Assembly: GCF_051194135.1 (NCBI RefSeq)
Contig: NZ_JBLZNH010000004.1
Location: 54,183-86,182, forward strand
Length of the DNA stretch: 32,000 nucleotides
Direction: 5' to 3'
Source of the DNA: Halorubrum sp. HHNYT27
GTDB lineage: Archaea > Halobacteriota > Halobacteria > Halobacteriales > Haloferacaceae
Shown: one piece after another, positions 384-16,271 of the stretch
How the letters are laid out: the number at the start of each line of letters is the position of its first letter
How positions within the stretch are numbered: position 1 is the stretch's first letter
Position numbers and translations under genes: made by a program
Notes under the pieces: model-generated
Databases searched by the model: none
The model's input: the letters and a program-made list of their open reading frames with translations, nothing else
Told to the model about the DNA's origin: nothing

Positions 384-389
384 GCCTGC

Positions 390-1259: not shown

Positions 1260-1875
1260 CCGCGGGCCCCTCCGACGGTCGCGGGGGATACGACTGCCGG
1301 CCCCCGGTCGACCGCCGAGCGAGAAGGCGGGCGGTCGCTCGGCGCCTGTCGTTCGGGCGCTCCTCGGTCGTCTCGTCGTAGTAGAGGACCGTCAGGCCGA
1401 GCCCCGCCCGGAGCAGTTCGTTGGCCGCGAATCGGTATCGGTCGTCGCTCGGTCCGGAGGGGGTCGGCGCCGCGGACCGGAGGTGCCCCTCCACGAACAG
1501 GTAGCCGCCGGGGACCAGCGCCTCGGTGAGGTCGGAAAAGCGGTCGAGCGTGTGAAAGAAGCTCATCGTGATCAGCTCGTACGCCTCGCTCGGGAACCCG
1601 TACGTGGAGACGTCGCCGAGGATCGGCTCGACTCGGTCGCCGATACCCATCTCTTCCGCGCGCTCGACCGTGACGCGCAGTCCCTCCCGGGAGGCGTCGA
1701 GCGCGTCGACCGAGTAGCCGGCCTCGGCGAGGAACACCGCGTTTCGGCCGGTTCCCGCGGCAACGTCGAGGGCGCGCCCGTCGGGGATCGAGGCCTCGTA
1801 CGCGCGCAGCACGGGCGACGGCTCCGGCTCTCGCGGGTAGTCCCCGGACGCGAACCGCTCGTCCCAGTCAGTCAT
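1252..1875 (-). CDS. class I SAM-dependent methyltransferase
   Basis: I place the start at the internal ATG (MTDWDERF...). SAM-binding motif I is LDVAAGTGRNAVFLAEAGY, followed by DALD. The 55 aa upstream in the track ORF are R/S-rich and look like non-coding extension. Confidence 0.8.
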   Translation of the reverse strand: MTDWDERFASGDYPREPEPSPVLRAYEASIPDGRALDVAAGTGRNAVFLAEAGYSVDALDASREGLRVTVERAEEMGIGDRVEPILGDVSTYGFPSEAYELITMSFFHTLDRFSDLTEALVPGGYLFVEGHLRSAAPTPSGPSDDRYRFAANELLRAGLGLTVLYYDETTEERPNDRRRATARLLARRSTGGRQSYPPRPSEGPAGE

Positions 1876-1934
1876 GGCGGCGATTGCGACCGACCGGGCG
1901 TAAACCCCACGGGCGTGGCGGTCGCATTCCCTGC

Positions 1935-2453
1935 ATGGACGAGACCGAACCCACCGCAGAGACCCTCGGCGACCTGTTGACCGACCGCGGCGAGAGCCTC
2001 GCCGTCGCCGAGTCGCTGACCGGCGGGCTGGTCGGGTCACGCGTGACCGACGTCCCCGGCGCGAGCGCGTACTTCGATCGCGGCTTCGTCACCTACGCGT
2101 ACGACGCGAAGCGCGAACTCCTCGGCGTCTCCCGCGAGTCACTCGACGCCGAGGGAGCGGTGAGCGCCCGAGTCGCGGAAGAGATGGCCGCCGGCGCACG
2201 AGACCGCGCGGGCACCACCTGGGCGGTCGCCACCACCGGAACCGCTGGGCCGGGCGGGGGCACTCCGGAGAAACCCGTCGGCCTCGTGTTCGTCGCCGTC
2301 GCCTACGCCGCGCCGTGGGGAACGGAGGCGTCGTTCACCCGGAGCGAGCGGGTGCTTCTCGACGGAGACCGAAGCGAGGTGAGACGCGGCGCCGTCGACG
2401 CCGCGATCGGTGCGCTCGTCCGGGCGGTCCGCGAGGTCGCCGCCGCGGAATAG
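1935..2453 (+). CDS. CinA C-terminal domain / nicotinamide-nucleotide amidohydrolase (PncC-like) protein
   Basis: From the ATG at 1935 (MDETEPT...). CinA-C signatures are present: LAVAESLTGGLVGSRVTDVPGAS.YF.RGFVTY, then ATTGTAGPGGG and GLVFVAV. Confidence 0.85.
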   Translation: MDETEPTAETLGDLLTDRGESLAVAESLTGGLVGSRVTDVPGASAYFDRGFVTYAYDAKRELLGVSRESLDAEGAVSARVAEEMAAGARDRAGTTWAVATTGTAGPGGGTPEKPVGLVFVAVAYAAPWGTEASFTRSERVLLDGDRSEVRRGAVDAAIGALVRAVREVAAAE

Positions 2454-2496
2454 GGCGGCGACTGCCCCCGCGCGAGTCCTCGCTGATGCACAAGCG

Positions 2497-2502
2497 TTTA
2501 TC
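2497..2502 (+). promoter_or_regulatory. TATA box (TTTATC) for a leaderless usp transcript
   Basis: The TTTATC is centred about 27 nt upstream of the ATG at 2526, the typical haloarchaeal spacing. Confidence 0.4.
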
Positions 2503-2525
2503 ACATAGATATGCGTACATATTGC

Positions 2526-2945
2526 ATGGTTCAACGCGTACTGGTGCCGATGGACGACTCAGAGCTCTCCGAGCGGGCGCTACGCTACGCGCTCGATGTG
2601 CACCATGACGCCGACGTGGCGGTGTTACACGTCGTCGGCGAGCCCTCTCGGATGATGGGGGCTGCGACGGGAATCGCGCTCGCCGACGACAGCGAGGAGC
2701 GGGTCCGGGAGCTATCCGCGGAGGTGTTCGAGCGAGCAACGCAGATCGCCGACGAGTACGGCGTCACTATCGAAACGCTGACCGAGGTCGGCTCACCGGC
2801 CCGTCGGATCGTCGAGCGGGCCGACGAGTTCGACGTGGTCGTCATCGGGACGCACGGCGGGTCGCTCGCGGATCGGCTTCTCGTCGGTAACGTGGCGAAG
2901 TCCGTCTTCCAACACTCGCCGGTGCCCGTGACGGTCGTGCGCTGA
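2526..2945 (+). CDS. universal stress protein (UspA family)
   Basis: MVQRVLVPMDDSELSERAL.YAL ... DVVVIGTHGGSLADRLLVGNVAKSVFQHSPVPVTVV. This is the canonical Usp N- and C-terminal motif set. Confidence 0.85.
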   Translation: MVQRVLVPMDDSELSERALRYALDVHHDADVAVLHVVGEPSRMMGAATGIALADDSEERVRELSAEVFERATQIADEYGVTIETLTEVGSPARRIVERADEFDVVVIGTHGGSLADRLLVGNVAKSVFQHSPVPVTVVR

Positions 2946-2984
2946 GCGAGAGCGTGCGGTCCGGGTCGGTTCCGGCCCGTGGCG

Positions 2985-3191
2985 TCACCCGTCGATGTAG
3001 GCGTGGCCGAGCACCGCGACGATCAGCGCCGCGACGACGATCCACGCGAACGGCTCGACCGCGAGCAGGCGGAGCGGTCGGGCCACCGACTCGTCGACGC
3101 CGAACAACACTCCGGAGGCGAAGAGGATAGCGACGACGAGGGCGGCGACGACCCCGGCGACGCCCAGCAGCGCGGTGTCGGTCCGATCCAT
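2985..3191 (-). CDS. small two-helix membrane protein (hypothetical)
   Basis: 68 aa from the internal ATG (MDRTDTALLGVAGVVAALVVAILFASG...FAWIVVAALIVAVLGHAYIDG). A TATATAA sits just upstream at 3205-3211. Confidence 0.5.
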   Translation of the reverse strand: MDRTDTALLGVAGVVAALVVAILFASGVLFGVDESVARPLRLLAVEPFAWIVVAALIVAVLGHAYIDG

Positions 3192-3313
3192 ACCGCGGAT
3201 CGGTCTCGTGCGTATATAAGCACATCCCGAGAGTCGATGCGAACAGGGTGAAGAGCAAGCCAGGGCAGGGCTTTGCAGATTATCTTTACAATCCCTCGAC
3301 TGCAGACTGAGGT

Positions 3314-4552
3314 ATGGGCGATCACGATCCACGTGCCGAGATCGACACACTGCGCCGCCGTATCCGGGGCGAAGTGGACGATCCCGACGCTGCTCGCGAC
3401 GTCACCGACGCCGACGCCGAGGCATTGATCAACTTCAGCGACCAACTCGATCTGCTCTCCAGTGAGTACTCCGACCACCGGCACCTCAAGCTGCTCCGGC
3501 ACTGCACTCGGATGGCCGAGCATACGAGCGTCCTCGCGGACGTCGTCGACGATCGCGACGCTGCCGAGGAGGTCGTCCGCTGGATCAACCGGGAGTACGA
3601 CAACGAGGAGACGAACCGGGACTACCGGAGCGCCATTCGCGTCTTCGCGAAGCGCGTCGCTCGCGAGAGCACGGCGCCGGACAGCGTTGACTGGATCCCA
3701 ACCGGTACCTCGAGCAGCTACGATCCGACGCCGAGCGAGCGAGATCTCCTCCTCTTCGAGCAGGATGTGAAGCCGATGGTCGAGGCCACACGCAACCCGC
3801 GCGATGCCGCCGCCATCATGATCCAGTTCGAGGCCGGACTCCGCGGTGGCGAGCTCGAGTCGCTTACCGTCGGCGACATTGTCGACGGCGAGCACGCGCT
3901 GGCTGTCCACGTCGACGGCAAGGAGGGCGAACGCGTCGTTCACCTGGTCGTCGCCGTCCCGTACCTCAACCAGTGGCTTGAGGCGCATCCGGCGCCGAGT
4001 GACCCCGACGCGCCGCTCTGGTCGCACCTCTCGAAGGCCTCGGGGCTTTCCTACAACGCCTACTTGAACATGTTCAAGGAGCCGGCGAAGCGGCTCGACA
4101 TGCACAAGGACGTCACTCCGACCAACTTCCGCCGGTCGAACACGCGCTGGCTCGTCCTCCAGGGCATGAGCCAGTCGCGTATCGAGGACCGTCAGGGTCG
4201 GAAGCGTGGCTCCGAGGCCACCCAGCGGTACATGGCTCGGTTCGGCGAGGAGTCGAACGAGCGCGCCTACGCGTCGATGCACGGGATCGACGTCGAGGAG
4301 GATCCCGACGGCGAGGACCACGCGCCCCTCGCATGCCCGCGATGTGACCGGGAGACACCCCGAGATAAGGAATACTGCGTCTGGTGTCACCAGGCGCTCA
4401 CGCCCGAGGCGGCTGAGCGCGTTGAGGAGGTCGACGACGCGCTCTTCGAGTCTGGCGTCGAGGCCACCGACGAGGCCACTGCTGAGGACCTTCGGGAGGC
4501 CAACCACGCCATCACGCCGCCGGTCAAACATCTGATGGCCGACCACGACTGA
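3314..4552 (+). CDS. tyrosine recombinase / phage-type integrase with a C-terminal zinc ribbon
   Basis: Catalytic-box candidates are FEAGLRGGE (Arg I), TNFRRSNTRWL (second Arg box) and SEATQRYMA (Tyr). A CPRC-x13-CVWC ribbon and an acidic tail follow. A TTTACA lies about 27 nt upstream of the ATG. Confidence 0.85.
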   Translation: MGDHDPRAEIDTLRRRIRGEVDDPDAARDVTDADAEALINFSDQLDLLSSEYSDHRHLKLLRHCTRMAEHTSVLADVVDDRDAAEEVVRWINREYDNEETNRDYRSAIRVFAKRVARESTAPDSVDWIPTGTSSSYDPTPSERDLLLFEQDVKPMVEATRNPRDAAAIMIQFEAGLRGGELESLTVGDIVDGEHALAVHVDGKEGERVVHLVVAVPYLNQWLEAHPAPSDPDAPLWSHLSKASGLSYNAYLNMFKEPAKRLDMHKDVTPTNFRRSNTRWLVLQGMSQSRIEDRQGRKRGSEATQRYMARFGEESNERAYASMHGIDVEEDPDGEDHAPLACPRCDRETPRDKEYCVWCHQALTPEAAERVEEVDDALFESGVEATDEATAEDLREANHAITPPVKHLMADHD

Positions 4553-4553
4553 C

Positions 4554-4727
4554 TCAGATATCACGATTACCCTCCTCGAGCTTGTCGAGCGCGTTCTGTG
4601 CGTACGGTGCGATCGGGAGGTCGGTGTCTGCGAGCCGCTCGAACAGCTCGCGATGGTCGCGAACGGTCTCGAGTGGTGACTCGGTGCCACTCGGTTCCTC
4701 CAGCTCGTCGATGTGGACAGCCCTCAT
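4554..4727 (-). CDS. hypothetical small acidic protein (57 aa)
   Basis: From the internal ATG (MRAVHIDELEEP...). Its ATG overlaps the stop of the upstream gene (ATGA), and the composition is acidic. Confidence 0.35.
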   Translation of the reverse strand: MRAVHIDELEEPSGTESPLETVRDHRELFERLADTDLPIAPYAQNALDKLEEGNRDI

Positions 4728-5062
4728 GAGGTCTCCTCCAGGTTCTCGGGATTGATTCGGGAGTAGTAGCTGGTCCCGAACTGGGCGTCGACGACGGCCG
4801 CAACGACAACGCCGTGGATGTTGGTGAGATGCTCTGGTTCGAGGCCATAACACGTCGTCAGCGTCTGCTCGCGCCGGAACACCACGAGGTCCGATCGCGC
4901 GTCATACCGTGCCTCGTCGTGTCGCGGGACAGGCGTCTCAGCAGGGATCTCGAGGCGGAGGCCGCGTTCCCACGCCGTCGCGACGGCAGCGCCACTGGTC
5001 GCGCGGATTCGGAACTGTTCGGCCGCGTGGTCGGTGGTGTACCGGGTGCGTTGGACGCTCAT
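4724..5062 (-). CDS. hypothetical protein (112 aa)
   Basis: ORF with a 4-nt start/stop overlap to both neighbours. I recognise no family. Confidence 0.5.
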   Translation of the reverse strand: MSVQRTRYTTDHAAEQFRIRATSGAAVATAWERGLRLEIPAETPVPRHDEARYDARSDLVVFRREQTLTTCYGLEPEHLTNIHGVVVAAVVDAQFGTSYYSRINPENLEETS

Positions 5063-5208
5063 GCGTCCACCTCGATGAGGAGGAGCGTGGCCTCGCGCAC
5101 GACGCTCTCGGTCGTATCGGTCGCCGGGTCGGTGGCGTTTGTGACGGGGCTTGCGATGCTGGAGTCGACGATCTCGTCGTGCGCGAGCGCGGAGATGGGA
5201 CTACGCAT
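5059..5208 (-). CDS. hypothetical small protein (49 aa)
   Basis: I chose the start MRSPISALAHDE because it overlaps the stop of the upstream micro-ORF (TGATG junction). Confidence 0.3.
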   Translation of the reverse strand: MRSPISALAHDEIVDSSIASPVTNATDPATDTTESVVREATLLLIEVDA

Positions 5209-5351
5209 CAGCGCGCCTCCGTGAGGTCGACGGTAAACGGCGACCGTATCCACGCGGCCGGGCTCTCCTCCGAGGAGATGACGTAGTCGCCGCAGACTTG
5301 GTAATCGTGGACCTCACCGTTCGCGCCGTCCGCGGCGTCACCGGCGGACAT
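5208..5351 (-). CDS. hypothetical micro-protein (47 aa, below the ORF-track cutoff)
   Basis: Hand translation gives MSAGDAADGANGEVHDYQVCGDYVISSEESPAAWIRSPFTVDLTEAR. Its ATG shares one base with the PadR gene stop (TAATG), and its stop overlaps the next ATG. Confidence 0.3.
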   Translation of the reverse strand: MSAGDAADGANGEVHDYQVCGDYVISSEESPAAWIRSPFTVDLTEAR

Positions 5352-5725
5352 TACTGCTCACCCCCCTCCCACGCCTGCCGTTCGGTGAGCAACGCCACGG
5401 CCGCGTCGGTCAGCGCGTAATTGTTCGTGCGCCTGTCGCGCTCGCTCTTCGCAATGAGATCGGCCTGGACGAGGTCGTCGAGGTTCGGATAGAGTCGTCC
5501 GTGGTTCACGTCCTCGCCGTACAGCGTCTCAAGCTGGCGCTTGACTCTGAGGCCGTACGCCTCGTGATCGGCCTCGTGGAACAGCGTCCAGAGGAGATCG
5601 CGTTGGAACCCGGTGAGTGCTGCATACGTGCGGAGCTGCTCGCGTCCGCTGTGGTCGCTGTCGATACGTCCTGGGTCGGTGGAGCCATCTTGATTAGGCC
5701 CCGTGTCTGATCTACTCATGGTCAT
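5351..5725 (-). CDS. PadR-family winged-helix transcriptional regulator
   Basis: From the internal ATG (MTMSRSD...). The PadR pattern is present: GLRVKRQLETLYGEDVNHGRLYPNLDDLVQADLIAKSERDRRTNNYALTDAAVALL. Confidence 0.7.
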   Translation of the reverse strand: MTMSRSDTGPNQDGSTDPGRIDSDHSGREQLRTYAALTGFQRDLLWTLFHEADHEAYGLRVKRQLETLYGEDVNHGRLYPNLDDLVQADLIAKSERDRRTNNYALTDAAVALLTERQAWEGGEQ

Positions 5726-5819
5726 CTGAGCCCTCGGAACGAGGGATTTGCTGGGGTGACCGGCCGTCGGCGCTGCCACGCCGGCGGGATTTTCCCGCGA
5801 CGGCCAGGTCAACGTAGAC

Positions 5820-6086
5820 TTATTCGACGGACACCTGATCCCACGGGATGAGGAGGTTCTCACGCTTGTCGAGGATCTCGTAGTGCTCGGCGTCGAGATC
5901 ATCGTCGCCGTTCTCGATCTGCCGGCGGCACCCTCGGCACCACACGTGGTTGTTCGTCCGGTCCCAGTCGACGTGGCCATTCGGACACACGTACCGATAT
6001 CGCTGCGACTCGACTGAGCGGTCGATCGTTACCACCAACTCATCGTCGTCGATGCGCCGAGCACCATATTCTTGCACGCGAGACAT
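5820..6086 (-). CDS. zinc-ribbon protein (hypothetical, 88 aa)
   Basis: MSRVQEYGARR...YVCPNGH-x13-WCRGC. The metal-ligand pattern is C-x3-H...C-x2-C, and the gene has its own TATA box. Confidence 0.55.
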   Translation of the reverse strand: MSRVQEYGARRIDDDELVVTIDRSVESQRYRYVCPNGHVDWDRTNNHVWCRGCRRQIENGDDDLDAEHYEILDKRENLLIPWDQVSVE

Positions 6087-6109
6087 CCGCTCTAGCTGAC
6101 GGGTTGAGG

Positions 6110-6115
6110 TATAAA
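6110..6115 (-). promoter_or_regulatory. TATA box (TTTATA on the minus strand) for the leaderless 6086 gene
   Basis: Plus-strand TATAAA at 6110-6115 is centred about 27 nt upstream of the minus-strand ATG ending at 6086. Confidence 0.45.
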
Positions 6116-6374
6116 GACCGTTTTTCTCCCCCGGGCCGGAAGTGAAGCCCCCATCGTGGAGGCCATCCGGTGACCGAGAGTGGGACTCTCTCAACAGATA
6201 CGCGCGATGAGAACAAGCGGGCATGAGCGAAAGTGGTCTCGTCGGTCGGGTCGATCCGGACACGAGCGCCACCCTCGAGCCACTTCGTTTCGATATCGCG
6301 AGCCCGTCGACGGTCGACGGGCTCCCTGAGGAGACGATCGGGATGTGCGTCTCGAGTGCTGCGAACGACCGCAT

Positions 6375-6590
6375 CTACGGCCCCTCCGTGAGCGTGACCG
6401 CGGTTCGATGCTCACCATCGATGACGACCTCGGTGAGTGACTCGCCGCCACACGGAACCCACGTCCGGCCGTTCCAGCGGTCGACACACCGGTCGGCGCG
6501 CCACGGCGCGTCCGGCACACGTTCGTAGCGGATACGCCGGCGCTCGCCCGACTCGGTCGTGTACACGATCGTCGGCAGGTCGTCACGCAT
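6375..6590 (-). CDS. hypothetical protein (71 aa)
   Basis: From the internal ATG (MRDDLPTIVYTTESGERRRIRYERVPDAPW...). The ATG lies inside the end of the upstream micro-ORF. Confidence 0.45.
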   Translation of the reverse strand: MRDDLPTIVYTTESGERRRIRYERVPDAPWRADRCVDRWNGRTWVPCGGESLTEVVIDGEHRTAVTLTEGP

Positions 6591-6756
6591 TGCGCACCTC
6601 CTCGTCGACGACGTCCTGGGTCGTCTGATACTGCTCAGCCACCAGTGCCGCGACCTGCTCGGCCTGCTCTTTATCGCCGTCCATCGCGGTGACAGTGACG
6701 AGCGTCTCGATACGCCCTGCATCGTCACAAATCGCGACGTCGTGTCTATTCACCAT
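6583..6756 (-). CDS. hypothetical micro-protein (57 aa, below the ORF-track cutoff)
   Basis: Hand translation gives MVNRHDVAICDDAGRIETLVTVTAMDGDKEQAEQVAALVAEQYQTTQDVVDEEVRNA. It is acidic and overlaps both neighbours by 8-11 nt. Confidence 0.35.
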   Translation of the reverse strand: MVNRHDVAICDDAGRIETLVTVTAMDGDKEQAEQVAALVAEQYQTTQDVVDEEVRNA

Positions 6757-6889
6757 TCGTCACCTCAAGCTCGAACGGGTCCGCTCGCGAGTAGTGCGCG
6801 ATCGCGTCGAGCAGGCTGATGTCGGCGGGATATTGCCGCGCGACGAACACGGCACGCGTGAAGCGCTCGTCGGCGTCCCACCTAGACAT
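6746..6889 (-). CDS. hypothetical micro-protein (47 aa, below the ORF-track cutoff)
   Basis: Hand translation gives MSRWDADERFTRAVFVARQYPADISLLDAIAHYSRADPFELEVTNGE. It overlaps the upstream gene by 8 nt and the downstream gene by 11 nt. Confidence 0.35.
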   Translation of the reverse strand: MSRWDADERFTRAVFVARQYPADISLLDAIAHYSRADPFELEVTNGE

Positions 6890-7256
6890 CGGCCGTCGCC
6901 TCCTCACTCGAGAGGTGCCGGACGGTCACGACCTCGCCGCGCTCCAGGTCGGCACCCTCGCAGGCAACGATCGCGTCGAGTTCCTCCAGAACGATTCCAT
7001 CTTCCCAGCGGTTGAGACAGTGGGTGAGCACTCGTGAGACGGCACCGTCCCAGTCGCCCTGGACGCGCACAATGGGCGTCTCGATCATCTTGGAGATGCG
7101 CGCGTCGGTGACCGTGCGAACGCCCGTATCGACGACGTCGACGGGGCGCGTACGGTCGCCGAAGACGACGCGGTCGCCCACGCGGAGCTCACGCAGGTCG
7201 GTGATCGTGTCGGTGCTATCAGTACCGTTTTGGGGTGTCGGATTCGTGGTTGACAT
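6882..7256 (-). CDS. hypothetical protein (124 aa), first gene of the micro-gene array
   Basis: Acidic ORF (MSTTNPTPQNGTDSTDTITDLRELRVGDRVVFGDR...). I recognise no family. Confidence 0.55.
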   Translation of the reverse strand: MSTTNPTPQNGTDSTDTITDLRELRVGDRVVFGDRTRPVDVVDTGVRTVTDARISKMIETPIVRVQGDWDGAVSRVLTHCLNRWEDGIVLEELDAIVACEGADLERGEVVTVRHLSSEEATADV

Positions 7257-7330
7257 GCTGTCGTTAGTGGACAGCGCGGTCGTCGGCGGTGCAACGCCGG
7301 CGGCCAGACCTTCTGACCGCGTCCCGCGCT

Positions 7331-7432
7331 TCTACTAGTTAGTATATTTGCTAACTATTTATAGATTAGCATTTGCGCTAACTATTAGTATATGCGCTAA
7401 GTACCGTCTTGTAGTGGTTAGCAAATACTACA
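7331..7432. promoter_or_regulatory. AT-rich divergent control region with repeated GCTAA/TTAGC operator-like cores
   Basis: Direct GCTAA cores lie at 7350, 7377 and 7396; inverted TTAGC cores at 7366 and 7418. TATTTGCTAAC (7345-7355) and GTTAGCAAATA (7417-7427) form an 11-nt perfect inverted repeat. GCTAACTATT is repeated at 7350-7359 and 7377-7386, and TTAGTATAT at 7339-7347 and 7385-7393. Confidence 0.5.
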
Positions 7433-7675
7433 ATGGGCACGCACAGAACACACGGTATGGCGAAGACTCGCGCGCTTCTCACAGAGACGGAGCGCGAGCA
7501 GATCGCGGGCGAGCATGGTAACTCTCGAAAGTACCAAGCAACATCTCGAGTCCGAGGACGGATCCAGGAAGAGCTCGAAAGCGACATGGAGGTCCTCAAA
7601 GAGCACCACCCGGACCTGCTCGAGGAGCTCCGCGAAGTCGTCTGCAAGGAGATCGCTGAGGGCGAAGACGAATGA
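7433..7675 (+). CDS. small putative HTH protein (80 aa; the start may be the second ATG at 7457)
   Basis: MAKTRALLTETEREQIAGEHGNSRKYQATSRVRGRIQEEL resembles a short LT-x-x-E HTH module. An acidic helical tail follows. Confidence 0.5.
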   Translation: MGTHRTHGMAKTRALLTETEREQIAGEHGNSRKYQATSRVRGRIQEELESDMEVLKEHHPDLLEELREVVCKEIAEGEDE

Positions 7676-7771
7676 CAGTCTCGACACCGCCGACGTACCA
7701 AGACGAGTCTCTCTATTGAAACCGTCGTGACCGATAGTAAGTATTCTACAGATGAGTGAATACCCTCTCGC

Positions 7772-8380
7772 ATGAGCAGTGAGCAAAAGTTGGCAGCGCT
7801 GGCAGAAGACATCGCGACGGTCATCTCGGCTGTCGATCGGAACACCGAGGGACAGTACGGAGACGGAATCGGGTCCGAGGACGAGCCACGGCAGGTAAAA
7901 CTCCTCGTCGAGGAGTTACAACGACACGGTTCGCCGTATCGAGACACGCGATTGGAGGTCCCATATCCCGATAGCTCCGAGAGCTGCGATCTCATCCTCC
8001 CGGACGGGATCCCGGTCGAGTGTAAGCTGCTCCGATACTGGCGAGCAAACGGCGCTCCGGAGGACTCGATGCCGATGCGCGTTTTCAGCCCGTTTCACGA
8101 GCACACCCTACTGAGTGACGCCCAAAAGTTGAGCGAGTCCGGTTTCGATCGCGACGGGGGATTGCTCGGACTGTTCTACAAGCGGTCGGATGACGACCCA
8201 GAAACTGTCGCTAGTCTGCCCGACCAGTTTACGGCGGAGCGTTTGGCCGACAAGACGGCTCGCGATCTCGAGTACTGGTTCGATATCGAGGTCGATGTCT
8301 GTGGAGTTGCGAAATTCGACAACCTGCGGCATCCGGTACAGGCGCAAGGAGCAGCGATCACGTGGGGAATTCGCTCATAA
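7772..8380 (+). CDS. PD-(D/E)xK-fold nuclease-like protein (uncharacterised)
   Basis: The core motif is SCD73LILPDGIPVE83CK85 (nt 7988-8026), preceded by a helix carrying acidic residues (LLVEELQRHG). The stop lies 8 nt before the next gene. Confidence 0.55.
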   Translation: MSSEQKLAALAEDIATVISAVDRNTEGQYGDGIGSEDEPRQVKLLVEELQRHGSPYRDTRLEVPYPDSSESCDLILPDGIPVECKLLRYWRANGAPEDSMPMRVFSPFHEHTLLSDAQKLSESGFDRDGGLLGLFYKRSDDDPETVASLPDQFTAERLADKTARDLEYWFDIEVDVCGVAKFDNLRHPVQAQGAAITWGIRS

Positions 8381-8388
8381 AAGAGTAG

Positions 8389-9267
8389 ATGAGTCATTTA
8401 ATGAGAAAGATCAACAAATCGGACTACGACGCCGCCGATTGGATGGGGTTCGACTGGTCGTCGTGGCTAAGTCTGGATCCGGCCGATGGCGAACTTTCCC
8501 GTATCTCCACGAACCCAGGGATCTACCGCGTTCGACACCTCGATCGAGACGGGCTGACATACATCGGCCAGACCGGGCGCAGCCTCCGAGGTCGCGTACG
8601 TGCTCTCTCGGGGTGCTACAACGTGAAAATGCCGTACACCGACCCGCACGTCGCGGCGCCGAGCCTCTGGGCTGTGCGTCAGGAGTACGGTCCCGAGTTC
8701 CAGGTATCGGTCGTCGAGCCCGACGATGTCGACAAGCGACGGCGACGGCTCTCGATCGAGGAAGCACTGATCGCGGTGTACCGCCGGGAATCTGGCGAGA
8801 ACACGACGGCGAACTTCGGTCGCATCATCGACGGCTACAAACGGTCGAGCATGCGGTCAAGCGGGTTCACCGGCGGGACACTCACCGACGACGAAACTGA
8901 GTCAAACTCGGCACCCGGCATCGGGCCGCTACCATGGACCGACGCGGACGAGCCAACGAGTCGATCGTGGATGGGGCTCGACTGGACGGCACCGGAGCCG
9001 CTCGCGAACGCCTACGGACTCCCGACCGATCCCGGTGTGTATCGAATCTGGGACCAAGATGAACCGGAACCACTGGAGTACATCGGGCAGAGTGGGAACC
9101 TGAAGAGTCGGCTCTATCAGCATCGTCGGAATCGCGACGCGGAGCTGGTGTTTAGCTATGCGATTCTCCGTGAGGGCGATGAGAAGCACAAGCGGGAACA
9201 GGTCGAGACCGACCTGATCGGCGCACACTGGCTGGCGACTAAAGAGGCGCCGCGAGAGCAGTTCTGA
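8389..9267 (+). CDS. tandem GIY-YIG nuclease-domain protein (uncharacterised)
   Basis: Module 1 reads PGIYRVRH-x7-LTYIGQTGRSLRGRV...IEEALIAVYRRESGENTTANF. Module 2 reads PGVYRIWD-x8-LEYIGQSGNLKSRLYQH...REQVETDLIGAHW. Each module is preceded by a WMG(F/L)DW motif. Confidence 0.7.
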   Translation: MSHLMRKINKSDYDAADWMGFDWSSWLSLDPADGELSRISTNPGIYRVRHLDRDGLTYIGQTGRSLRGRVRALSGCYNVKMPYTDPHVAAPSLWAVRQEYGPEFQVSVVEPDDVDKRRRRLSIEEALIAVYRRESGENTTANFGRIIDGYKRSSMRSSGFTGGTLTDDETESNSAPGIGPLPWTDADEPTSRSWMGLDWTAPEPLANAYGLPTDPGVYRIWDQDEPEPLEYIGQSGNLKSRLYQHRRNRDAELVFSYAILREGDEKHKREQVETDLIGAHWLATKEAPREQF

Positions 9268-9294
9268 TTGACGTTGGCCAAGAGGCTATTTCGC

Positions 9295-10164
9295 TTAGTT
9301 CAACGGGTAATGTCGCTGCTCTGCTTTTTTGATCAGTTCCTCATTGAACGCGTCTCTATCCTCTCCTTCGTGAACCCGACGGTGGCAGTTTGCACAGAGT
9401 GCGATCACATTCTCGGGCTCGTCAGCGCCGCCGTCGGCCCGTCGATAGAGGTGGTGGACTTCGAGGTAGGGATCGCCGCTCTTAGTGATGAACGGGGCGT
9501 CCTCCTCACAGCCTTGACAGACGCCGTCGGCGTGCGCAAGCGCGTAGTCTCGGACAGCTTGCGATCGAGAGTACCGCTTCCGTTTTGACGTCGACGATCC
9601 GCCGGAGTTGCCGCCAGAACCGGACCGCGGGCTGCTCGCTTTCGCGCGTTCGTAGAGGCTTTGGAGATTGTCACCGCCAGTGTCGTCGAGCTCTACCTCT
9701 TCGCCGCCAACGGGTTCAAGCTCGAAACGGAACGCATCGCGGTACTCGTCGTTTTTGTCTTTGAGTCGGGCCTCCCGAACGCCGGTACATTCGAACTCGC
9801 CGACGTAGGTGACGACCCACGCTTCGTCGGTGTTCTCGAACAAGTGGAGCGACGTCTCGGTCCGCTTGTGGGAGTTGATTGCCGCGTTACCCTCATTCAT
9901 CTCCATGTCACCTTCGGTGCCCTCACCGGTGTAGAGGAAAGTTCCATCGTCGAGGAACTCGTCTTCGTACCCATATGTCTCACCCGAGTCGCCGGTGAAG
10001 AGGAATACGGCCGAATACTCGGTGGGCGTGGCGATCCCGCGGTAGCGCTGTCCACCGTAGATATCGTGGAGCGCTTTTCGATCGTACCGCTGACCTGGCG
10101 TGAAGCCGAGGTTGTCGTCGAGGTCGTCGTTGCTGAGGGGTTCGAGTTTCGATGACGAGGGCAT
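9295..10164 (-). CDS. SRA(YDG)-like domain fused to an HNH endonuclease (type IV, modification-dependent restriction enzyme)
   Basis: The ATG is at 10164; the track ORF begins at an upstream TTG. The N-terminal region YGGQRYRGIA...AVFLFTGDSGETYGYEDEFLDDGTFLYTGEGTEGD parallels the SRA block ...LAGGYEDD.D.G..F.YTGSGG. The C-terminal HNH is CQGC...EVHHL...NVIALCANCHRRVH. Confidence 0.8.
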   Translation of the reverse strand: MPSSSKLEPLSNDDLDDNLGFTPGQRYDRKALHDIYGGQRYRGIATPTEYSAVFLFTGDSGETYGYEDEFLDDGTFLYTGEGTEGDMEMNEGNAAINSHKRTETSLHLFENTDEAWVVTYVGEFECTGVREARLKDKNDEYRDAFRFELEPVGGEEVELDDTGGDNLQSLYERAKASSPRSGSGGNSGGSSTSKRKRYSRSQAVRDYALAHADGVCQGCEEDAPFITKSGDPYLEVHHLYRRADGGADEPENVIALCANCHRRVHEGEDRDAFNEELIKKAEQRHYPLN

Positions 10165-10346
10165 ATGCTCGTCAAATATCAACCTTTCCTTAATTTACTT
10201 ACTACATCATCGAAACAGAATACCTTCGGAAAGTAGCACACGACCTATTCTTGGCAGCATCCCTCATCCTGATCACATTGATAATAAGATGGAATAATAT
10301 GAATATCATAGCTATGTGATAACTGGAGTTCAGTTGATGGTAGAAA

Positions 10347-10352
10347 TTTATA
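10347..10352 (+). promoter_or_regulatory. TATA box (TTTATA) for a leaderless mcrB-like transcript
   Basis: It is centred about 28 nt upstream of the ATG at 10378, inside a very AT-rich divergent intergenic region (10183-10377). Confidence 0.45.
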
Positions 10353-10377
10353 TGGTTGTTATCAGTTAGTCATAGCA

Positions 10378-12864
10378 ATGGCGTCGCAAGCTGCAAAGCA
10401 GTGGCTTTCGTATTTTGAAACAATCGCTAACGCGGTTGACGTGCAAGTGGATCTCTCACCGACAGATATCTTCCAGATTACGTCGGACACAGCATCGCCT
10501 GCCGTGGGCAAGGTACGGACCTCCACCTATGGAACGCGTGATCAGCCCGCCATTTGGCAGCGATATGATCGAGAAATCGAACGGCTCAACGACAAGCGTG
10601 ATGAGCGGGTGTTTGCGATCCAACTTGACGTTCAGGACCGATCACGCTTCGATCCGGCACACGATCACTTCATCTTCCTCTCACAGGATCTCCTTGAAAA
10701 TGAGGCAAGCGAGACCGGCGATCTAACGATCGAGAGTGACGGACCGGGCCAATACGCAGCTCCCTTTCAGAGCCGCACAAACAACTGGAACGTTCTCTTT
10801 GAGTATCTCACCGGGGAATCAATTGATCGCGACCTTGGGGAACTAATTACCACCAGCGACCCGCCAACAGAGGAGTCCGATAGATCGTATTATTGGGTGA
10901 ACCAGAAGCGAGACATCGAGCTTGAGGGCGAATATCTTCGTTCAAGCGATACGAAGTGGCAGCGAGATCTGACAGTCATCGAACGAGGCGATGTTATCTT
11001 TCATTACACGGACCAAGCGATCCGAGCCTGTTCGGTCGCCACTGGTGGCGCATATCGAACGGCCCTCGAGGACGACGAATACTATCGGGTTGATGTCTCG
11101 ACGACCCAGCTTGACTCGCCGCTCCCACTATCAGTGATTCAGGACCAACTTCAGACCCCCGAGTACAAACAAAACAAACGTCGCTACCCGCTCGATAAGA
11201 ACGGCAACGTCATTCAGGCGTACCTCTGTCATCTTACTGATGACGCCGGACAGTATCTACTCAGGAAAGCAGATATCGACGTCCCGGACGTAGATCCGAC
11301 AGAGTCAACCAACTACTTCTGGATCACGGCGAATCCCGCGATCTGGTCCGTTGAGAGTATCGCCGACCACGGAGAGGTATTTTATACTGCATACAACCGC
11401 AACGGGAACAAACGCCGGATATTTGATGCCTTTGAAAAAGCCAGTCCTGGTGATGAAGTGGTCTTTTATGAGTCACAGCCGGTCCAAGCGATCGTCGCAA
11501 AAGGGCAGATCGTCGAAGGTCTTCACACGAGTGAACATGATGACTATGATGAACCAGTTGCAGGAATCACGATCGAATACACACGAGCAGTTGAGAAAAT
11601 CACATGGGAGCAGCTCACTGCAGTTCCCGCTATTGAGAACTCATCACCGGTGAAAAACCGGGCACAGGGTAGTCTCTTTACGCTCACCGAAGACGAATTT
11701 GAGTCGATTCTCGCCTTAGAAGCGCCCCGTACCGACGATGTGTCACAGGAGGCCGTTGATGCGCTCGCAGCGAAACTCACTTCGCCTGAAATTGCCGTCT
11801 CGATCCCCGACACGCTGTATTTCGATGATGCGGATCGACTACGCCGCGAGATTGAAGCGTCGCTCCGCTCCGGGAAACATATCATCTTCACCGGCCCGCC
11901 TGGCACCGGGAAAACCAAGCTCGCAAAAGCGATCGCGGAGACCGCTACGACGTACGACCAAGTCGATGATTACCGGTTTACGACAGCAACGTCTGAGTGG
12001 ACCGCGTTCGACACCATCGGCGGCTACGTCCCCTCCACAGGCGACGGTGGCCAACAGCTGCTATTCGAGCCACGACTCTTTCTCAACTGCTTCCGACAAG
12101 ACCAGATCGTCAACGAGTGGCTCATCATCGACGAGATCAACCGCGCAGACATCGACAAAGCCTTCGGCCAGCTGTTCTCTGTGCTTTCCGGCGACTCAAC
12201 CGAGCTCCCGTATGAACGCGATCGGACCGTCGAGCTCCGATCACTTTCGGGCACAACGACCGACGAGGAGCTCGCTGCCATCATTGAGAATCCGGATGCT
12301 TTCCCAGTCACCCCCTCGTGGCGGTTACTCGCGACGATGAACACCTATGATAAAACTTCACTGTACGAGATGTCGTACGCGTTCATGCGGCGGTTCAACT
12401 TCATTCACGTCGGCGTTCCTCCGCTGACGACCGACGACGAGAGTGTCCGCAGTTCACTGCTTGATCCTCACGGGACGACCAACTATGCGACCGCGTGGCT
12501 CACCGATAACAAGATGTTGGAGTCTGTTCTCGAGGAGAACTTCCAGGTTGTGACTGTGCTGTGGCAGCGCATTAACGAACACCGCACCATCGGCCCCTCT
12601 ATTGTCTACGATATTATTCGGTATCTGGACGCCTACACTGACAGTGGTGGCACGCAAGCTGATGCGTTGACGTCTGCGGTAATTTCGCTTGTCTACCCAC
12701 AACTTGAGGGGATGCGACCTGCCCAGCAGAAACAGCTGATTCGGTCGCTCACGGGCCAGACCGTCGCGACCGAACATGGCACAGTCGCACTCGATCTTGA
12801 TGGGACAATACTCCAGCAGAAAGCCGCCGATTTCTTCGGAATTGCATTTGAAGATGGCGCGTAG
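10378..12864 (+). CDS. mcrB: McrB-family AAA+ GTPase with an unknown N-terminal domain and two EVE/PUA-like reader modules
   Basis: Walker A is FTGPPGTGKTKLA, Walker B is WLIIDEINRADIDKAFGQLF, and the McrB signature region is LLATMNTYDKTS...MRRFNFI. Reader module 1 is YYWVNQ...RGDVIFHYTDQAIRACSVATG. Reader module 2 is NYFWITANPAIWS...PGDEVVFYESQPVQAIVAKGQIVEG...QGSLFTLTEDEFESIL. Confidence 0.85.
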   Translation: MASQAAKQWLSYFETIANAVDVQVDLSPTDIFQITSDTASPAVGKVRTSTYGTRDQPAIWQRYDREIERLNDKRDERVFAIQLDVQDRSRFDPAHDHFIFLSQDLLENEASETGDLTIESDGPGQYAAPFQSRTNNWNVLFEYLTGESIDRDLGELITTSDPPTEESDRSYYWVNQKRDIELEGEYLRSSDTKWQRDLTVIERGDVIFHYTDQAIRACSVATGGAYRTALEDDEYYRVDVSTTQLDSPLPLSVIQDQLQTPEYKQNKRRYPLDKNGNVIQAYLCHLTDDAGQYLLRKADIDVPDVDPTESTNYFWITANPAIWSVESIADHGEVFYTAYNRNGNKRRIFDAFEKASPGDEVVFYESQPVQAIVAKGQIVEGLHTSEHDDYDEPVAGITIEYTRAVEKITWEQLTAVPAIENSSPVKNRAQGSLFTLTEDEFESILALEAPRTDDVSQEAVDALAAKLTSPEIAVSIPDTLYFDDADRLRREIEASLRSGKHIIFTGPPGTGKTKLAKAIAETATTYDQVDDYRFTTATSEWTAFDTIGGYVPSTGDGGQQLLFEPRLFLNCFRQDQIVNEWLIIDEINRADIDKAFGQLFSVLSGDSTELPYERDRTVELRSLSGTTTDEELAAIIENPDAFPVTPSWRLLATMNTYDKTSLYEMSYAFMRRFNFIHVGVPPLTTDDESVRSSLLDPHGTTNYATAWLTDNKMLESVLEENFQVVTVLWQRINEHRTIGPSIVYDIIRYLDAYTDSGGTQADALTSAVISLVYPQLEGMRPAQQKQLIRSLTGQTVATEHGTVALDLDGTILQQKAADFFGIAFEDGA

Positions 12865-14218
12865 CCTCACTGAAGCGGAACTTCTCGACGCCACCGCCGC
12901 GGAGCTAAGCACCTACCTCCGAAGTGGCACCCTCAACACCCACGCATTGGCTGACTCACTTGCGTACGAGGGGCTCGATATCGACGACTGGGAGCGTGTC
13001 AAACGCATTCATTTCTGTCTCTCAACGCCGGTCCGTAAGTTTATCACGCAGCTCCCAGACCGTGTTCGACGGATCAAAACCGAACACCAACGCGACCAAC
13101 GTCCTACACGCGGGGAAGTCCGCGGCGCGATCGACTGGAGCGCGACACTCCGAACCCGTGCTGAAAGCGGATACGTTGACCAGAGCCGGTTCGTTTGTAA
13201 CACGCCGTACACCGAATACGACATCCCTGAGAATCGCGTGTTGAAACGGCTCCTATGGGTGATTCACCGTACAGTCAGCACCGATCTCGAGCCCATTGAG
13301 TACGACTGGCGCCACGAGTACTGGAGCGACGACCAGATCAGAGATTTCATCCGCCTGTACCGCCAGAATGTCCATCTCAATCGCATCAGCGATGGGCAAT
13401 CTCTCAGTGTCACCAGCCAGGATATGACTACCGCACGTCGCTCCCGTCTGTCGCTGTACACCGACGCCTATGAGCTGTACGATGCGTATCAACGCCTCCA
13501 AGCCGACACGTTTGATCCCGATATCACCGAGCTACTGGCGAACACGCTTGTTATTCCGACGCGTGCGCCGCAACTCTATGAGTTGTTTTGTTGTTTTCGC
13601 GTGATTCGTACCCTCAACGCTCACACCCCTGGCTTCAGACTGCAGCCGATTGATGGGGATACTGACGCACTTGCGCGCTTCAAATCTGATGATCGTCGTA
13701 TTGACGTGTATCATGACCGCACCGGGACGCTCAGCTTCTACGAGCCGCTAGATGGAGATAGACCGACCCATCCGCAGTTCGCGCGCTATCACGACGCGCT
13801 CACCGACTACGCGACAACCCTCGAAACACTCACCGGGAGTTCCCACGAGCCCGTCTTATACAACGGGCGTCCCGACCTTATTATTGAGCTGTATGACACT
13901 ACCAGCCAAGATGAACTGCTGACCGTACTCATCGGCGAAGTCAAGTATTCGGATGCGAAACAGACTTTCAAGCGAGGCCTTGCGGAACTCCTCACGTACC
14001 GTCGCTTTGGGACCGCCGATGACGTGTCTCTTCTCGACAACCCCGATATTTCTGTGGCCGGGCTGCTCATTACTAATGGGATCACAACAAGTGGAACAAG
14101 CGATCGTCTCGTCCATTGCAACGGCAGTGACCTTCTTGCTAACGACAGCGCCAGTTCACAGCAACCGGACTGGATCCGCCCGCTGACACAACAGCTTCCC
14201 GAGGCTAATAGCACGTAA
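12854..14218 (+). CDS. mcrC: McrC-like PD-(D/E)xK nuclease subunit
   Basis: The ATG at 12854 overlaps the mcrB stop by 11 nt. The C-terminal motif is RPDLIIELYD...VLIGEVKYSD (D...E-x-K). Size and position are typical of McrC. Confidence 0.75.
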   Translation: MARSLTEAELLDATAAELSTYLRSGTLNTHALADSLAYEGLDIDDWERVKRIHFCLSTPVRKFITQLPDRVRRIKTEHQRDQRPTRGEVRGAIDWSATLRTRAESGYVDQSRFVCNTPYTEYDIPENRVLKRLLWVIHRTVSTDLEPIEYDWRHEYWSDDQIRDFIRLYRQNVHLNRISDGQSLSVTSQDMTTARRSRLSLYTDAYELYDAYQRLQADTFDPDITELLANTLVIPTRAPQLYELFCCFRVIRTLNAHTPGFRLQPIDGDTDALARFKSDDRRIDVYHDRTGTLSFYEPLDGDRPTHPQFARYHDALTDYATTLETLTGSSHEPVLYNGRPDLIIELYDTTSQDELLTVLIGEVKYSDAKQTFKRGLAELLTYRRFGTADDVSLLDNPDISVAGLLITNGITTSGTSDRLVHCNGSDLLANDSASSQQPDWIRPLTQQLPEANST

Positions 14219-14663: not shown

Positions 14664-16271
14664 TCACTCCTCTTCTCGAAACTCGTTCAGTGGGTCACCG
14701 CTCTTTAATCGTTCTTGAAGCTTCTCCTCTTCGAGGAACCGTATCTCTGAAGTACGAATGTACTCCTCGTTGCGCTCGAAAGTCAGCCAATGGCGATCAG
14801 CGTCCTCGGCGGTCTTCCCGGTCCAGTTTGACCCACCGAAGATGTCGAGCACGATCGGGCGATCGAGGTATCCTGGCGACGTCTGATCGCCACGTTCCCA
14901 CCCGTCGTAAGGCGGGTCGGGAGTCAGCAGGTTCACGAAGAACTGCGGTAACTTCTCCGGGAAGCGGGCAGGGTGTCGATCAAACCCGTATTTACGACAC
15001 ATCCGCTGATAGTGCGTGTTGCTTGCCGTGTTCGGTGTTTTGATGAAGTTCTTCGGAATCGCTCCATCGTTGTCGTTCGAAAACGAGTCTGAGCCGATAT
15101 CATGCCCCGAACTGCGCTTTCCTTCGTTGTATTCACCGGTCTCGATGAGCTCTTCTTGGCTCTCACTGTACGTCTTCAGCACCTGCGAGTTGCGCTGGTT
15201 GTTTACCTCGGGTTTGGGGTATGGCCGTCGGATTTCTTCTCCGTTTTTGATGTGGGCAAGTACTTTTTCCCCATAGACTCGTGGCGCCTTGTTTGTGCCA
15301 AGAATGAGGCTATGGACGTAGAGCGTCCAGTACGGAGAAATGTTCGCTAAGAGCGTCTCCCGTACGTCCTCGTCGTACCGCTCATCGTTGTTCGGTTCGA
15401 GGACCTCGAAGACGCGCTCTAAATCCGCGCGGGTAAGGTCGGTCTCGGCGGACCACGTTTCCGGATCTGACGAACTCACCTCGGCGAGAAGATCAAGAAC
15501 GTACGCGACCGAAAGGCGATCATCAGGCTCCTCGACGATTTCGTCTTCCTCTTCAGCTGCAGTGTTTAGAGTCGTCTGGTCCGTCCCATCGTCGGTAGTT
15601 TTCTGTGAGGGTAGTTCAGCCTCGCCGTAGAGAATCGCCTCGACGACATCCAGCAGTTCGTCGTCGGTGAGGCGGTCTCCAAACTCATCGCGGATCGTCT
15701 CAATGGTCTCGACTTTGTCTTGCAGATCCTGCGTGTAGGCAGGCTCCTTGTTGAGCTCTTTCGAGAACCACCACATTTGCGTCACGGCGTCGACGCCGCG
15801 GAGTTTCCGGACGTTCACCCACTCGATCGGGCTCGGGAGCTTGTTCGGATTGTACCAGTACCAGTCCTGGGCAAACTTCAGGTTGCCCTCCTCGACGATG
15901 CGCGTCAGGAGCTTCCACTGGTACAGAGAGCGCTCCGGCATCCCTTTCTTGAACGCGCCACCGATCTCGACGATGAAGCTCCCGTGCGGTTGGAGCACCC
16001 GCCGAACTTCTGGGATGAACTCCATGAACCACTCGTTGTATGAGTCCTGATCCTTATTCCCGTACTCCTTCTCGTTCTGGAGTGCGAACGGTGGCGACGT
16101 AACGATCAGGTCAATCGAATTGTCGGGTAGCTCCTTCAGCAGTTCGCGGCTATCGCCTTGGAACGCGGCGCCGAGTTCCGTCTCATACGTTGGGGAGGAG
16201 TCAAGAAGATCGGCAACGGACTCTTGATCATCCGCCCGACGATCGCTTTCTTCTACACTACGAGTCCCCAT
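14664..16271 (-). CDS. M.PvuII-like beta-class N4-cytosine DNA methyltransferase with a large acidic insertion
   Basis: Motif IV is IVTSPPFALQNEKEYGN (SPPF at nt 16086-16097). Conserved blocks are KLPSPIEWVN, WWFSK and HPARFPEKLPQFF. Motif I is VLDIFGGSNWTGKTAE (nt 14817-14846). From my recollection of the M.PvuII sequence, the order IV then I and the SPPF/DIFGGSN.TG wording match it. About 190 extra residues sit between WWFSK and the SGHDIG block. Confidence 0.85.
   Translation of the reverse strand: MGTRSVEESDRRADDQESVADLLDSSPTYETELGAAFQGDSRELLKELPDNSIDLIVTSPPFALQNEKEYGNKDQDSYNEWFMEFIPEVRRVLQPHGSFIVEIGGAFKKGMPERSLYQWKLLTRIVEEGNLKFAQDWYWYNPNKLPSPIEWVNVRKLRGVDAVTQMWWFSKELNKEPAYTQDLQDKVETIETIRDEFGDRLTDDELLDVVEAILYGEAELPSQKTTDDGTDQTTLNTAAEEEDEIVEEPDDRLSVAYVLDLLAEVSSSDPETWSAETDLTRADLERVFEVLEPNNDERYDEDVRETLLANISPYWTLYVHSLILGTNKAPRVYGEKVLAHIKNGEEIRRPYPKPEVNNQRNSQVLKTYSESQEELIETGEYNEGKRSSGHDIGSDSFSNDNDGAIPKNFIKTPNTASNTHYQRMCRKYGFDRHPARFPEKLPQFFVNLLTPDPPYDGWERGDQTSPGYLDRPIVLDIFGGSNWTGKTAEDADRHWLTFERNEEYIRTSEIRFLEEEKLQERLKSGDPLNEFREEE

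Follow-up and report, generated by a model that had tools for sequence, protein, structure and literature searches.

Among the closest known counterparts of the locus reported here are restriction-like systems built on GIY-YIG nucleases. PDC-M57, a computational candidate of PADLOC, joins a small DUF6884 protein (component A) and a GIY-YIG-like protein of ~238 amino acids (aa; component B) in a two-gene module. The type II restriction nucleases Eco29kI, Cfr42I and Hpy188I have cognate methyltransferases and unite two active sites, for both strands, by homo-oligomerization; a single GIY-YIG domain provides one active site and cuts one strand, and a double-strand break requires dimers or tetramers of the known GIY-YIG restriction enzymes. 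CMoRE (PD-T4-3) is a single-gene GIY-YIG type IV restriction enzyme specific for 5-hydroxymethylcytosine and its glucosylated form (5hmC/5ghmC), and is defined by a GIYxY-YIG motif, an acidic inhibitory loop, and a domain at the C-terminus that senses modification (PMC12923530). Here, we compare with these systems two neighboring genes of Halorubrum sp. HHNYT27, g1 (7772–8380, 202 aa) and g2 (8389–9267, 292 aa), which lie on the plus strand of a 32,000-nucleotide (nt) stretch of contig NZ_JBLZNH010000004.1 (positions 54,183 to 86,182), referred to below as the window.

The analysis indicates that g1 represents an unannotated, stand-alone family of PD-(D/E)xK type, and that g2 is a tandem (double) GIY-YIG nuclease. 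Their association resembles a facultative partnership, in which separate modules sometimes travel together. The best explanation, to which we assign about an even chance of being correct, is that g1 and g2 are autonomous restriction-type nucleases that are co-transcribed in this genome, that g2 works as a single-chain pseudo-dimer, and that both probably act against foreign, possibly modified, DNA.

The two nucleases and their closest relatives

Long spurious open reading frames (ORFs) overlap both g1 and g2 in this GC-rich DNA, and the two were taken as real genes because homologues conserve them. The original prediction, made from the sequence before any database search, described two co-directional ORFs 8 nt apart, a clean PD-(D/E)xK core in the first, two GIY-YIG modules in the second, no methyltransferase, ATPase or sensor domain in the pair, and no assignment to a known system. 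These features were borne out, and neither protein belongs to a named or candidate PADLOC system.

The g2 protein has two stretches that match the Pfam model PF01541 (E=1.8e-8; 35 bits, cutoff 22.6), the better of which covers residues 216–253. Its halves align to each other (E=7e-9, 41% identity) over a tryptophan-rich lead-in (DWxGxxWS) and the GxY...YIG...R segment, and the AlphaFold2 model (predicted local distance difference test, pLDDT, 92.6; predicted template modeling score, pTM, 0.90) is composed of two beta-beta-alpha-alpha-beta-alpha units. The N-terminal module (8422–8838) combines a DWxGxxWSxW lead-in with a GIY-YIG domain, and the C-terminal module (8956–9267) a WMGLxWS lead-in with a canonical GIY-YIG domain. 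Across an alignment of 25 sequences of 49–88% identity, Y218, Y231, R241, H245, and E273 of the C-terminal module are invariant, as are Y46, Y58, R69, E124, and N142 of the N-terminal module, which also keeps R64. The spacing in the C-terminal module, with R241 ten and H245 fourteen residues after Y231, matches the Y17/R27/H31 arrangement of I-TevI; the distal asparagine is not evident in the alignment, and an invariant H280 lies near that position. The N-terminal module aligns in register to the GIY-YIG motif of UvrC, with R69 as the catalytic arginine and L73 where UvrC has a tyrosine. Because this His/Tyr position is occupied by a leucine, catalytic activity of the module is likely but not certain.

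Homologues of g2 begin at the position of Met5, so the gene probably starts at 8401 rather than 8389, which would widen the gap to g1 to 20 nt. In several Halorubrum genomes (P0115, P0119, P0121, and P0125), the NCBI gene models start at Met81 and encode 212 aa; they thereby drop the first GIY...YIG motif (corresponding to 8389–8628), though residues 18–80 are conserved family-wide. The family comprises at least 312 clusters in a set of 5.8 billion proteins, with a typical length of 286–288 aa, and a single locus was found among the 2.9 million viral contigs of IMG/VR. Two homologues at 59% identity are filed under bacteria, one from Rhizobium sp. S152 (L008, with a DUF6884 gene) and one from Actinoplanes utahensis (P0131), which suggests contamination or very recent transfer. 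A plasmid of Halomicrobium urmianum (L101, 3344–4870) encodes a 508-aa protein in which a ~220-aa N-terminal region with a stretch resembling a helix-turn-helix (HTH) precedes the full g2 body (hidden Markov model, HMM, E=2e-52), a natural fusion of g2 to a probable DNA-binding domain. It is the only g2 fusion found in a search for g1–g2 and g1–DUF6884 fusions, and its N-terminus matches neither g1 nor DUF6884.

Foldseek matches of the g2 model are to single GIY-YIG domains only: the N-terminal domain of AtGRXS16 (7.8e-4), that of UvrC (~0.03), and, weakly, PD-T4-3/CMoRE and Hpy188I. Like CMoRE, g2 is a GIY-YIG protein without a methyltransferase, but the match is weak (E=0.5 over ~100 columns) and confined to the catalytic domain. 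The g2 motifs read GIYRV and GVYRI, and its model has no third domain, at odds with the defining features of CMoRE. In contrast to Eco29kI, Cfr42I and Hpy188I, g2 unites the two domains in a single chain, and no methyltransferase lies next to it. Component B of PDC-M57 has one catalytic domain, whereas g2 has two; neither g2 nor g1 matches the M57 models, and g2 was rejected as a relative of component B, as hhalign aligns the GIY-YIG core alone (E=0.019, probability 2.5%). Membership of PDC-S14 was likewise discarded, the matches covering residues 214–250 only. GIY-YIG homing endonucleases are marked by C-terminal NUMOD, IENR1, or HTH modules and by an intron, intein, or free-standing phage context; for g2, neither such modules nor an intron or intein were found, and the viral contigs gave the one locus mentioned above. 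No description of a tandem GIY-YIG protein was found in the literature searched.

The g1 protein contains the motif D73-x9-E83-C-K85, of which D73, E83, and K85 are all invariant among 24 close relatives. Among 30 members with identities down to 23%, residues D22, G32, E38, Y65, D73, E83, and D116 are invariant, and K85, R88, G94, P107, K119, and H187 are kept in at least 90%; E38, D73, E83, and K85 are the catalytic candidates. The AlphaFold2 model (pLDDT 85, pTM 0.87) follows an alpha-beta-beta-beta-alpha-beta order, with a helix at 38–51, strands at 60–64, 71–75, and 81–87, helices, a strand at 129–137, a further helix, and two more strands. The fold was assigned to the PD-(D/E)xK order because D73 lies on the second strand and E83-x-K85 on the third.

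This core and the E...D...ExK set are shared with SfsA, Cas4, NucS, R.SwaI, and EcoRV, at matches that fall short of conventional significance (E=0.019 and 0.2). The better of these aligns the g1 family profile to SfsA (4dap, E=0.019) over Y65...D73...E83-x-K85. A Foldseek search of the PDB lists SfsA first, with R.SwaI, Cas4, NucS, and EcoRV in the top list and nothing significant, and the viral Foldseek list is headed by an entry named 'PD-(D/E)XK nuclease superfamily' (E=8.8e-3). Neither the OB domain of SfsA nor the Fe-S cluster cysteines of Cas4 are present in g1, and the motifs RYWRANG, SPF, GLLGLFY, and H187 are specific to its family. Searches with g1 gave no match in Pfam, NCBIfam, PADLOC, or PHROGs; a Pfam scan of 24 relatives one by one (E<=10) returned noise, and a PADLOC scan of 30 distant relatives nothing. 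The family holds 111 clusters in the 5.8-billion-protein set, haloarchaeal wherever named and including a protein of HHNYT27 (P0001) that is 100% identical to g1, and 248 clusters at 50% identity, mostly of ~200 aa, in an exhaustive profile search; no locus was found in the viral contigs of IMG/VR. From residue conservation and the predicted structure, we conclude that g1 founds a distinct putative PD-(D/E)xK family with an intact catalytic set.

Separate modules or one system

The association of the two genes was analyzed in 36 species-level g2 loci and 42 metagenomic g1 loci, with more added through exact-protein look-up and plasmid searches to a total of ~100. Loci were scored with tblastn and family HMMs, and g1 was counted as near g2 when within 3.5 kb; the contigs of the distant g1 relatives P0262, P0235, P0290, and P0365 are too short to be informative on context. 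Five of the 36 g2-anchored loci (L018, L020, L024, L025, and L038) have g1 nearby, and four of these five g2 copies are truncated or broken across frames. Remnants of g2 near g1 occur also in L039, L045, L050, and L082. The four closest Halorubrum g2 genes (L003–L006, 80–85% identity) have no g1, nor does the nearest full-length homologue (P0112 in L096, 88%). Most intact g2 genes (16/24) have none of g1, DUF6884, and M57B nearby, and of 17 g1-anchored loci flanked on either side by 2 kb or more, nine contain no partner family. An intact g2 directly after g1 was seen in the window alone among the ~100 loci. The neighborhood check set beforehand thus failed to support the original prediction of a pair conserved as a unit. 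The broader proposal, a novel two-gene immunity cassette, holds insofar as both genes encode uncatalogued predicted nucleases and their association is non-random; the idea of a fixed unit is not supported.

Gene order and orientation vary wherever g1 and g2 co-occur, all pairwise combinations of g1, g2, DUF6884, and M57B are seen, and 12 of the 36 g2 copies are split or truncated, a frequency of decay that fits rapid turnover. Together with the common solitary copies, this pattern fits independent restriction-type modules that gather in the same islands and hot spots. A single-copy g1 placed at random in a ~3.5-Mb genome would be expected within 3.5 kb of g2 in an estimated ~0.1 of 36 loci, compared with the five observed, although this null ignores islands and one restricted to defence islands would raise the expectation substantially. 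In Halorubrum, a minimal tyrosine recombinase of ~203 aa, with no domain beyond the Phage_integrase catalytic one (E=4e-22), is encoded repeatedly a few kb or less from g1 or g2 (L004 7852–8463, L001 9289–9894, L096 4938–5552, L006, L037, and L041) and could be related to the shuffled gene orders.

The recurrent conserved partner of g2 is DUF6884, not g1. All-against-all clustering of ORFs identified a ~143-aa family directly upstream of g2, usually overlapping the g2 start, in 12 of the 36 loci (13 counting a remnant). This family is DUF6884 (PF21818, E ~1e-40), whose DNA-binding fold resembles YaaA and has a pocket predicted to flip bases (PMC11701544). On Natrinema J7-2 and Natrialbaceae plasmids, RefSeq independently annotates this pair, and a cyanobacterial plasmid from Tolypothrix carries a g2 homologue (37% identity) followed after 8 nt by DUF6884. 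The partner also matches component A of PDC-M57 (E=5e-30). Component B (E=1.8e-73) neighbors g1, in divergent orientation, in five contigs and g2 in two loci (L015 and L033); the window contains no homologue of either component, and g1 is not a component of PDC-M57.

Our preferred explanation treats the two genes as independent, because g1 is near only the five g2 loci listed above, solitary copies are common, among them those in the Halorubrum slot described below, and order is variable. Each would be able to exist alone, and in HHNYT27 the two would have come to lie side by side where a defence island begins or ends. As two GIY-YIG catalytic domains, each expected to cut one strand, are present in one chain, g2 may act as a built-in pseudo-dimer that cleaves both strands. 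Where DUF6884 is translationally coupled to g2, as in many genomes, it would supply target recognition, a partner missing from the window. The g1 protein would be a small, usually solitary PD-(D/E)xK nuclease whose Halorubrum slot is fixed and of low GC, with integrative elements and defence genes coming and going. Both proteins may be directed, in the manner of type IV enzymes, at DNA that is foreign and probably modified, since no methyltransferase accompanies them, their habitual neighbors (SRA-HNH and EVE-McrBC) are modification-dependent, and CMoRE offers a precedent. Co-transcription in the window is probable: a terminator-like stem-loop with a T-rich tail (9275–9288, plus strand) follows g2 and none was found between g1 and g2, by a bacterial-type heuristic, which makes this only suggestive.

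Several observations pull against this explanation. The genes lie co-directionally, 8–20 nt apart, with no terminator-like site between them, which is the usual arrangement for subunits of one system. The position of g1 relatives by GIY-YIG nucleases in at least seven settings, some with overlapping stop and start codons, suggests more than shared residence in islands. Finally, no recognizable sensor domain that would support modification dependence was found in g1 or g2.

The seven or more settings are apparently independent and involve three different GIY-YIG families (g2, M57B, and a 456-aa family termed g2L), an adjacency that is far above chance expectation. Annotated as 'GIY-YIG nuclease family protein', g2L ends 1–4 nt inside the start of a g1 homologue on plasmids from three families (Salinigranum rubrum, Natrinema sp. 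DC36, and Halomarina sp. BND7); the homologue is ~42% identical to g1 and mis-annotated as a 'transcriptional regulator'. Its halves, each with a lead-in and a GIY-YIG-like module, align to each other (E=3e-12). It was rejected as an orthologue of g2, as only the YIG-R-H core aligns (E=2e-4). Since g2L was duplicated independently of g2, the tandem GIY-YIG architecture has been paired with g1 twice independently. Two tighter operonic couplings thus stand out in the data, DUF6884–g2 and g2L–g1.

The g2L–g1 overlaps count in favor of the leading alternative, which we rate as possible though clearly less probable than independent nucleases: g1 and g2 would form a genuine two-component system, in which g1 replaces DUF6884 as an alternative partner that targets or activates tandem GIY-YIG effectors, and the window would hold a DUF6884-less variant. 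In the window, g1 occupies the exact place usual for DUF6884, upstream of and co-directional with g2 at a gap of 8 nt, and g1 and a tandem GIY-YIG gene share the same strand in all 15 of their co-occurrences. Tight g1–DUF6884–g2 triplets exist in L024 and L025, and the pairing of g1 with M57B in five contigs, taken with the identity of DUF6884 as component A, produces a pattern of {g1, DUF6884} combined with {M57B, g2}. The same pattern weakens the proposal once the M57B–g2 loci are included, as all combinations are then found, which is expected of independent island cargo. Moreover, most g1 and most g2 genes lack the other, including close relatives of the window g2; the g2 copies beside g1 are mostly degraded; and order and spacing are not conserved. 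The full catalytic set kept in g1 would be unexpected for a mere adaptor, and no g1–g2 fusion was found, the sole fusion partner seen being the HTH-like domain.

A broader version, which we consider somewhat more doubtful still, would place these genes in a modular restriction-like family spanning archaea and bacteria, in which GIY-YIG effectors (M57B, g2, and g2L) combine with an interchangeable DUF6884 or g1, often together with SRA-HNH enzymes. The window would then hold the first member pairing g1 with a tandem GIY-YIG protein, and g2 would be the first GIY-YIG enzyme from nature to have two active sites in a single chain.

The SRA-HNH enzymes themselves form part of a third, improbable explanation. 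Homologues of the SRA-HNH gene that faces g2 in the window adjoin g1 in L039, L041, L050, L053, L020, and L093, and four metagenome contigs (L084–L087) have a g1 homologue of only 28% identity placed 43 nt downstream of an SRA-HNH gene that is likewise homologous (HMM E=1e-67). The three genes might therefore act as a functional trio, in which the SRA-HNH protein, or another reader-HNH protein, would recognize modified cytosine, with g1 and the tandem GIY-YIG nuclease as accessory cutters by which degradation is extended or completed. A trio of g1, reader-HNH, and tandem GIY-YIG genes recurs in four shuffled arrangements: g1 and g2 convergent with SRA-HNH in the window; g2 convergent with a reader-HNH gene that is followed by a plus-strand g1 in L001; g1, HNH, and g2 in one direction with gaps of 39 and 116 nt in L020; and g2L and g1 convergent with SRA-HNH in L093. 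Decayed versions are present in L039, L041, L045, and L050. Against a working trio, SRA-HNH enzymes such as ScoMcrA function alone (PMC7461809), many g1 and g2 loci have no HNH gene at all, the often convergent or divergent orientation argues against one operon, and L084–L087 represent a single lineage. No description of an auxiliary nuclease for SRA-HNH enzymes was found in the literature searched.

Comparably improbable is the reading of g1 as a chromosomal nuclease for DNA repair or housekeeping that flanks an integration hot spot, with its adjacency to g2 an accident of island insertion. In Halorubrum salipaludis (L081), g1 is solitary between zf-CHY and VTT/GtrA/sulfatase genes, and the same chromosomal slot holds g1 in L042, L082, and L083, making four Halorubrum genomes in all. 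An element with an integrase and PadR has inserted just upstream of g1 in L082, where a 34-aa g2 remnant lies 1.4 kb downstream, and integrase fragments lie downstream of g1 in L042. In Halobonum (L002), g1 stands alone among PrkA/SpoVR/FEN1 genes; in eight contigs it lies directly upstream of an RlmE/FtsJ-TRAM rRNA methyltransferase gene. One homologue (P0235, 40% identity; L089, 1–378 and 375–989) overlaps by 4 nt the end of a gene whose product has an AGOG-type N-glycosylase/DNA lyase domain (E=6.6e-9), a repair-like pairing. A housekeeping role fits less well with the low GC of g1 relative to its surroundings in Halorubrum (0.62 against 0.70–0.71 for the solitary copy in L081), with its patchy distribution, and with plasmid-borne copies beside BREX, McrBC-like, and type I restriction-modification genes; a repair function hardly accounts for its recurring place beside restriction-type nucleases.

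That g2 is instead a selfish homing-type or mobile-element nuclease is very unlikely: GIY-YIG is the catalytic domain of many homing endonucleases, and g2 is often near integrases (L096 and L099) and frequently pseudogenized, but it lacks NUMOD/IENR1 and any other DNA-binding tail, is not set in an intron or intein, scores E=0.19 against the group I intron endonuclease model TIGR01453 (cutoff 56 bits), is all but missing from viral contigs, and shows conserved coupling to DUF6884 and repeated adjacency to McrBC.

The surrounding defence island

The pair is located in a defence island that belongs to an integrative element or borders one, and Pfam and PADLOC matches confirmed the SRA-HNH, McrBC, and BREX neighbors that had been proposed from the sequence. 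On the minus strand and convergent with g2 lies the SRA-like and HNH type IV restriction enzyme gene (9295–10182; HNH PF01844, 1.1e-10; PADLOC mREase_IV, 5.5e-19), whose SAD_SRA and DUF3427 matches are weak. It belongs to the class of ScoMcrA and TagI, with which g1 relatives co-localize across large evolutionary distances; neither g1 nor g2 has an SRA or HNH domain. An EVE-domain McrB (AAA_5) gene and a McrC-like gene follow on the plus strand (10378–14218, McrB at 10378–12864). McrBC adjoins g2 in six other loci (L005, L011, L015, L022, L024, and L026), and the g2L–g1 pair in L092. The N-terminal ~180 aa of the window McrB, before the EVE domain (10378–10914), share 31% identity with the N-terminal part of a 315-aa HNH_2 enzyme (L001, 7003–7950, minus strand), which is encoded between g2 and g1 in Halorubrum BOL3-1; the common region would be an unannotated putative reader domain.

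Beyond McrBC, the minus strand (14664–19381) encodes an N6_N4 DNA methyltransferase (535 aa) and a ResIII/DEAD helicase (980 aa), which may be a type III-like restriction-modification pair or BREX accessory genes, and the BREX genes PglZ, BrxB, and BrxA come next. The methyltransferase gene is 87% identical at the DNA level to one in L050, which lies ~6.5 kb upstream of the SRA-HNH/g1 block there. In two other g2 loci (L010 9572–10531 and L012 10969–11928), a DUF4268 protein matching PADLOC PDC-S11 (E=3e-107) is encoded directly downstream of g2, and is another candidate defence gene of these islands.

Upstream of g1, the window contains a tyrosine integrase (3314–4552), a PadR-like gene, and an 80-aa gene (7433–7675, plus strand). 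The G+C content falls from ~0.70 over the first 3 kb to 0.50–0.62 from ~7 kb on, and a search for attachment (att) sites around g1 found no convincing direct repeats within 1–10400. At the g1 slot of Halorubrum sp. N11 (L082), a full integrase (5686–6834) lies just upstream of g1 and fragments (10731–10863) ~3 kb downstream; these integrase-derived fragments are 92% and 79% identical at the protein level, which hints that elements have integrated repeatedly at this hot spot, or that the integrase gene contains an att site.

The 80-aa gene had been suggested as an HTH regulator of the pair, a role that finds no backing: it has no HTH match and no conserved linkage to g1 or g2, and matches the viral family phrog_26393 over its full length (E=3e-41). 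Homologues in L005 and L024 lie 3–7 kb from g2 on the opposite strand, and the gene looks like a mobile-element gene, carried as provirus or plasmid cargo. The AT-rich region just upstream of it (7339–7430) contains a 27-nt tandem repeat (7339–7365 and 7366–7392, 74% identical) and a perfect 11-bp inverted repeat, TATTTGCTAAC (7345–7355) and GTTAGCAAATA (7417–7427); it may be an operator or promoter, or an element boundary.

Implications for haloarchaeal defence

Haloarchaeal genomes are rich in predicted defence candidates that are experimentally unproven (bioRxiv 10.1101/2025.11.08.687337). To these, the window adds two sizeable families that catalogues have missed: the PD-(D/E)xK family of g1, with ~250 clusters at 50% identity and no Pfam model, and the tandem GIY-YIG family, with more than 300 clusters at 90% identity, generic annotation, and often a truncated start. 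Neither family was found described in the literature searched, which covered tandem GIY-YIG proteins, DUF6884, PDC-M57, and SRA-HNH partners. The nuclease superfamilies of both are well known, and both fall within a familiar class, that of restriction-like defence genes without a methyltransferase.

DUF6884 and g2 form a real conserved module, present in archaea and cyanobacteria, that ties g2 to the PADLOC candidate PDC-M57. If the g2 monomer does cut both strands, its solution would be new to the GIY-YIG superfamily, and it would offer a compact nuclease scaffold. The recurrence of g1 with SRA-HNH enzymes hints at helper nucleases for some type IV enzymes. Worthwhile leads are the tandem GIY-YIG architecture, the cross-domain DUF6884–g2 module, and the g1/SRA-HNH association.

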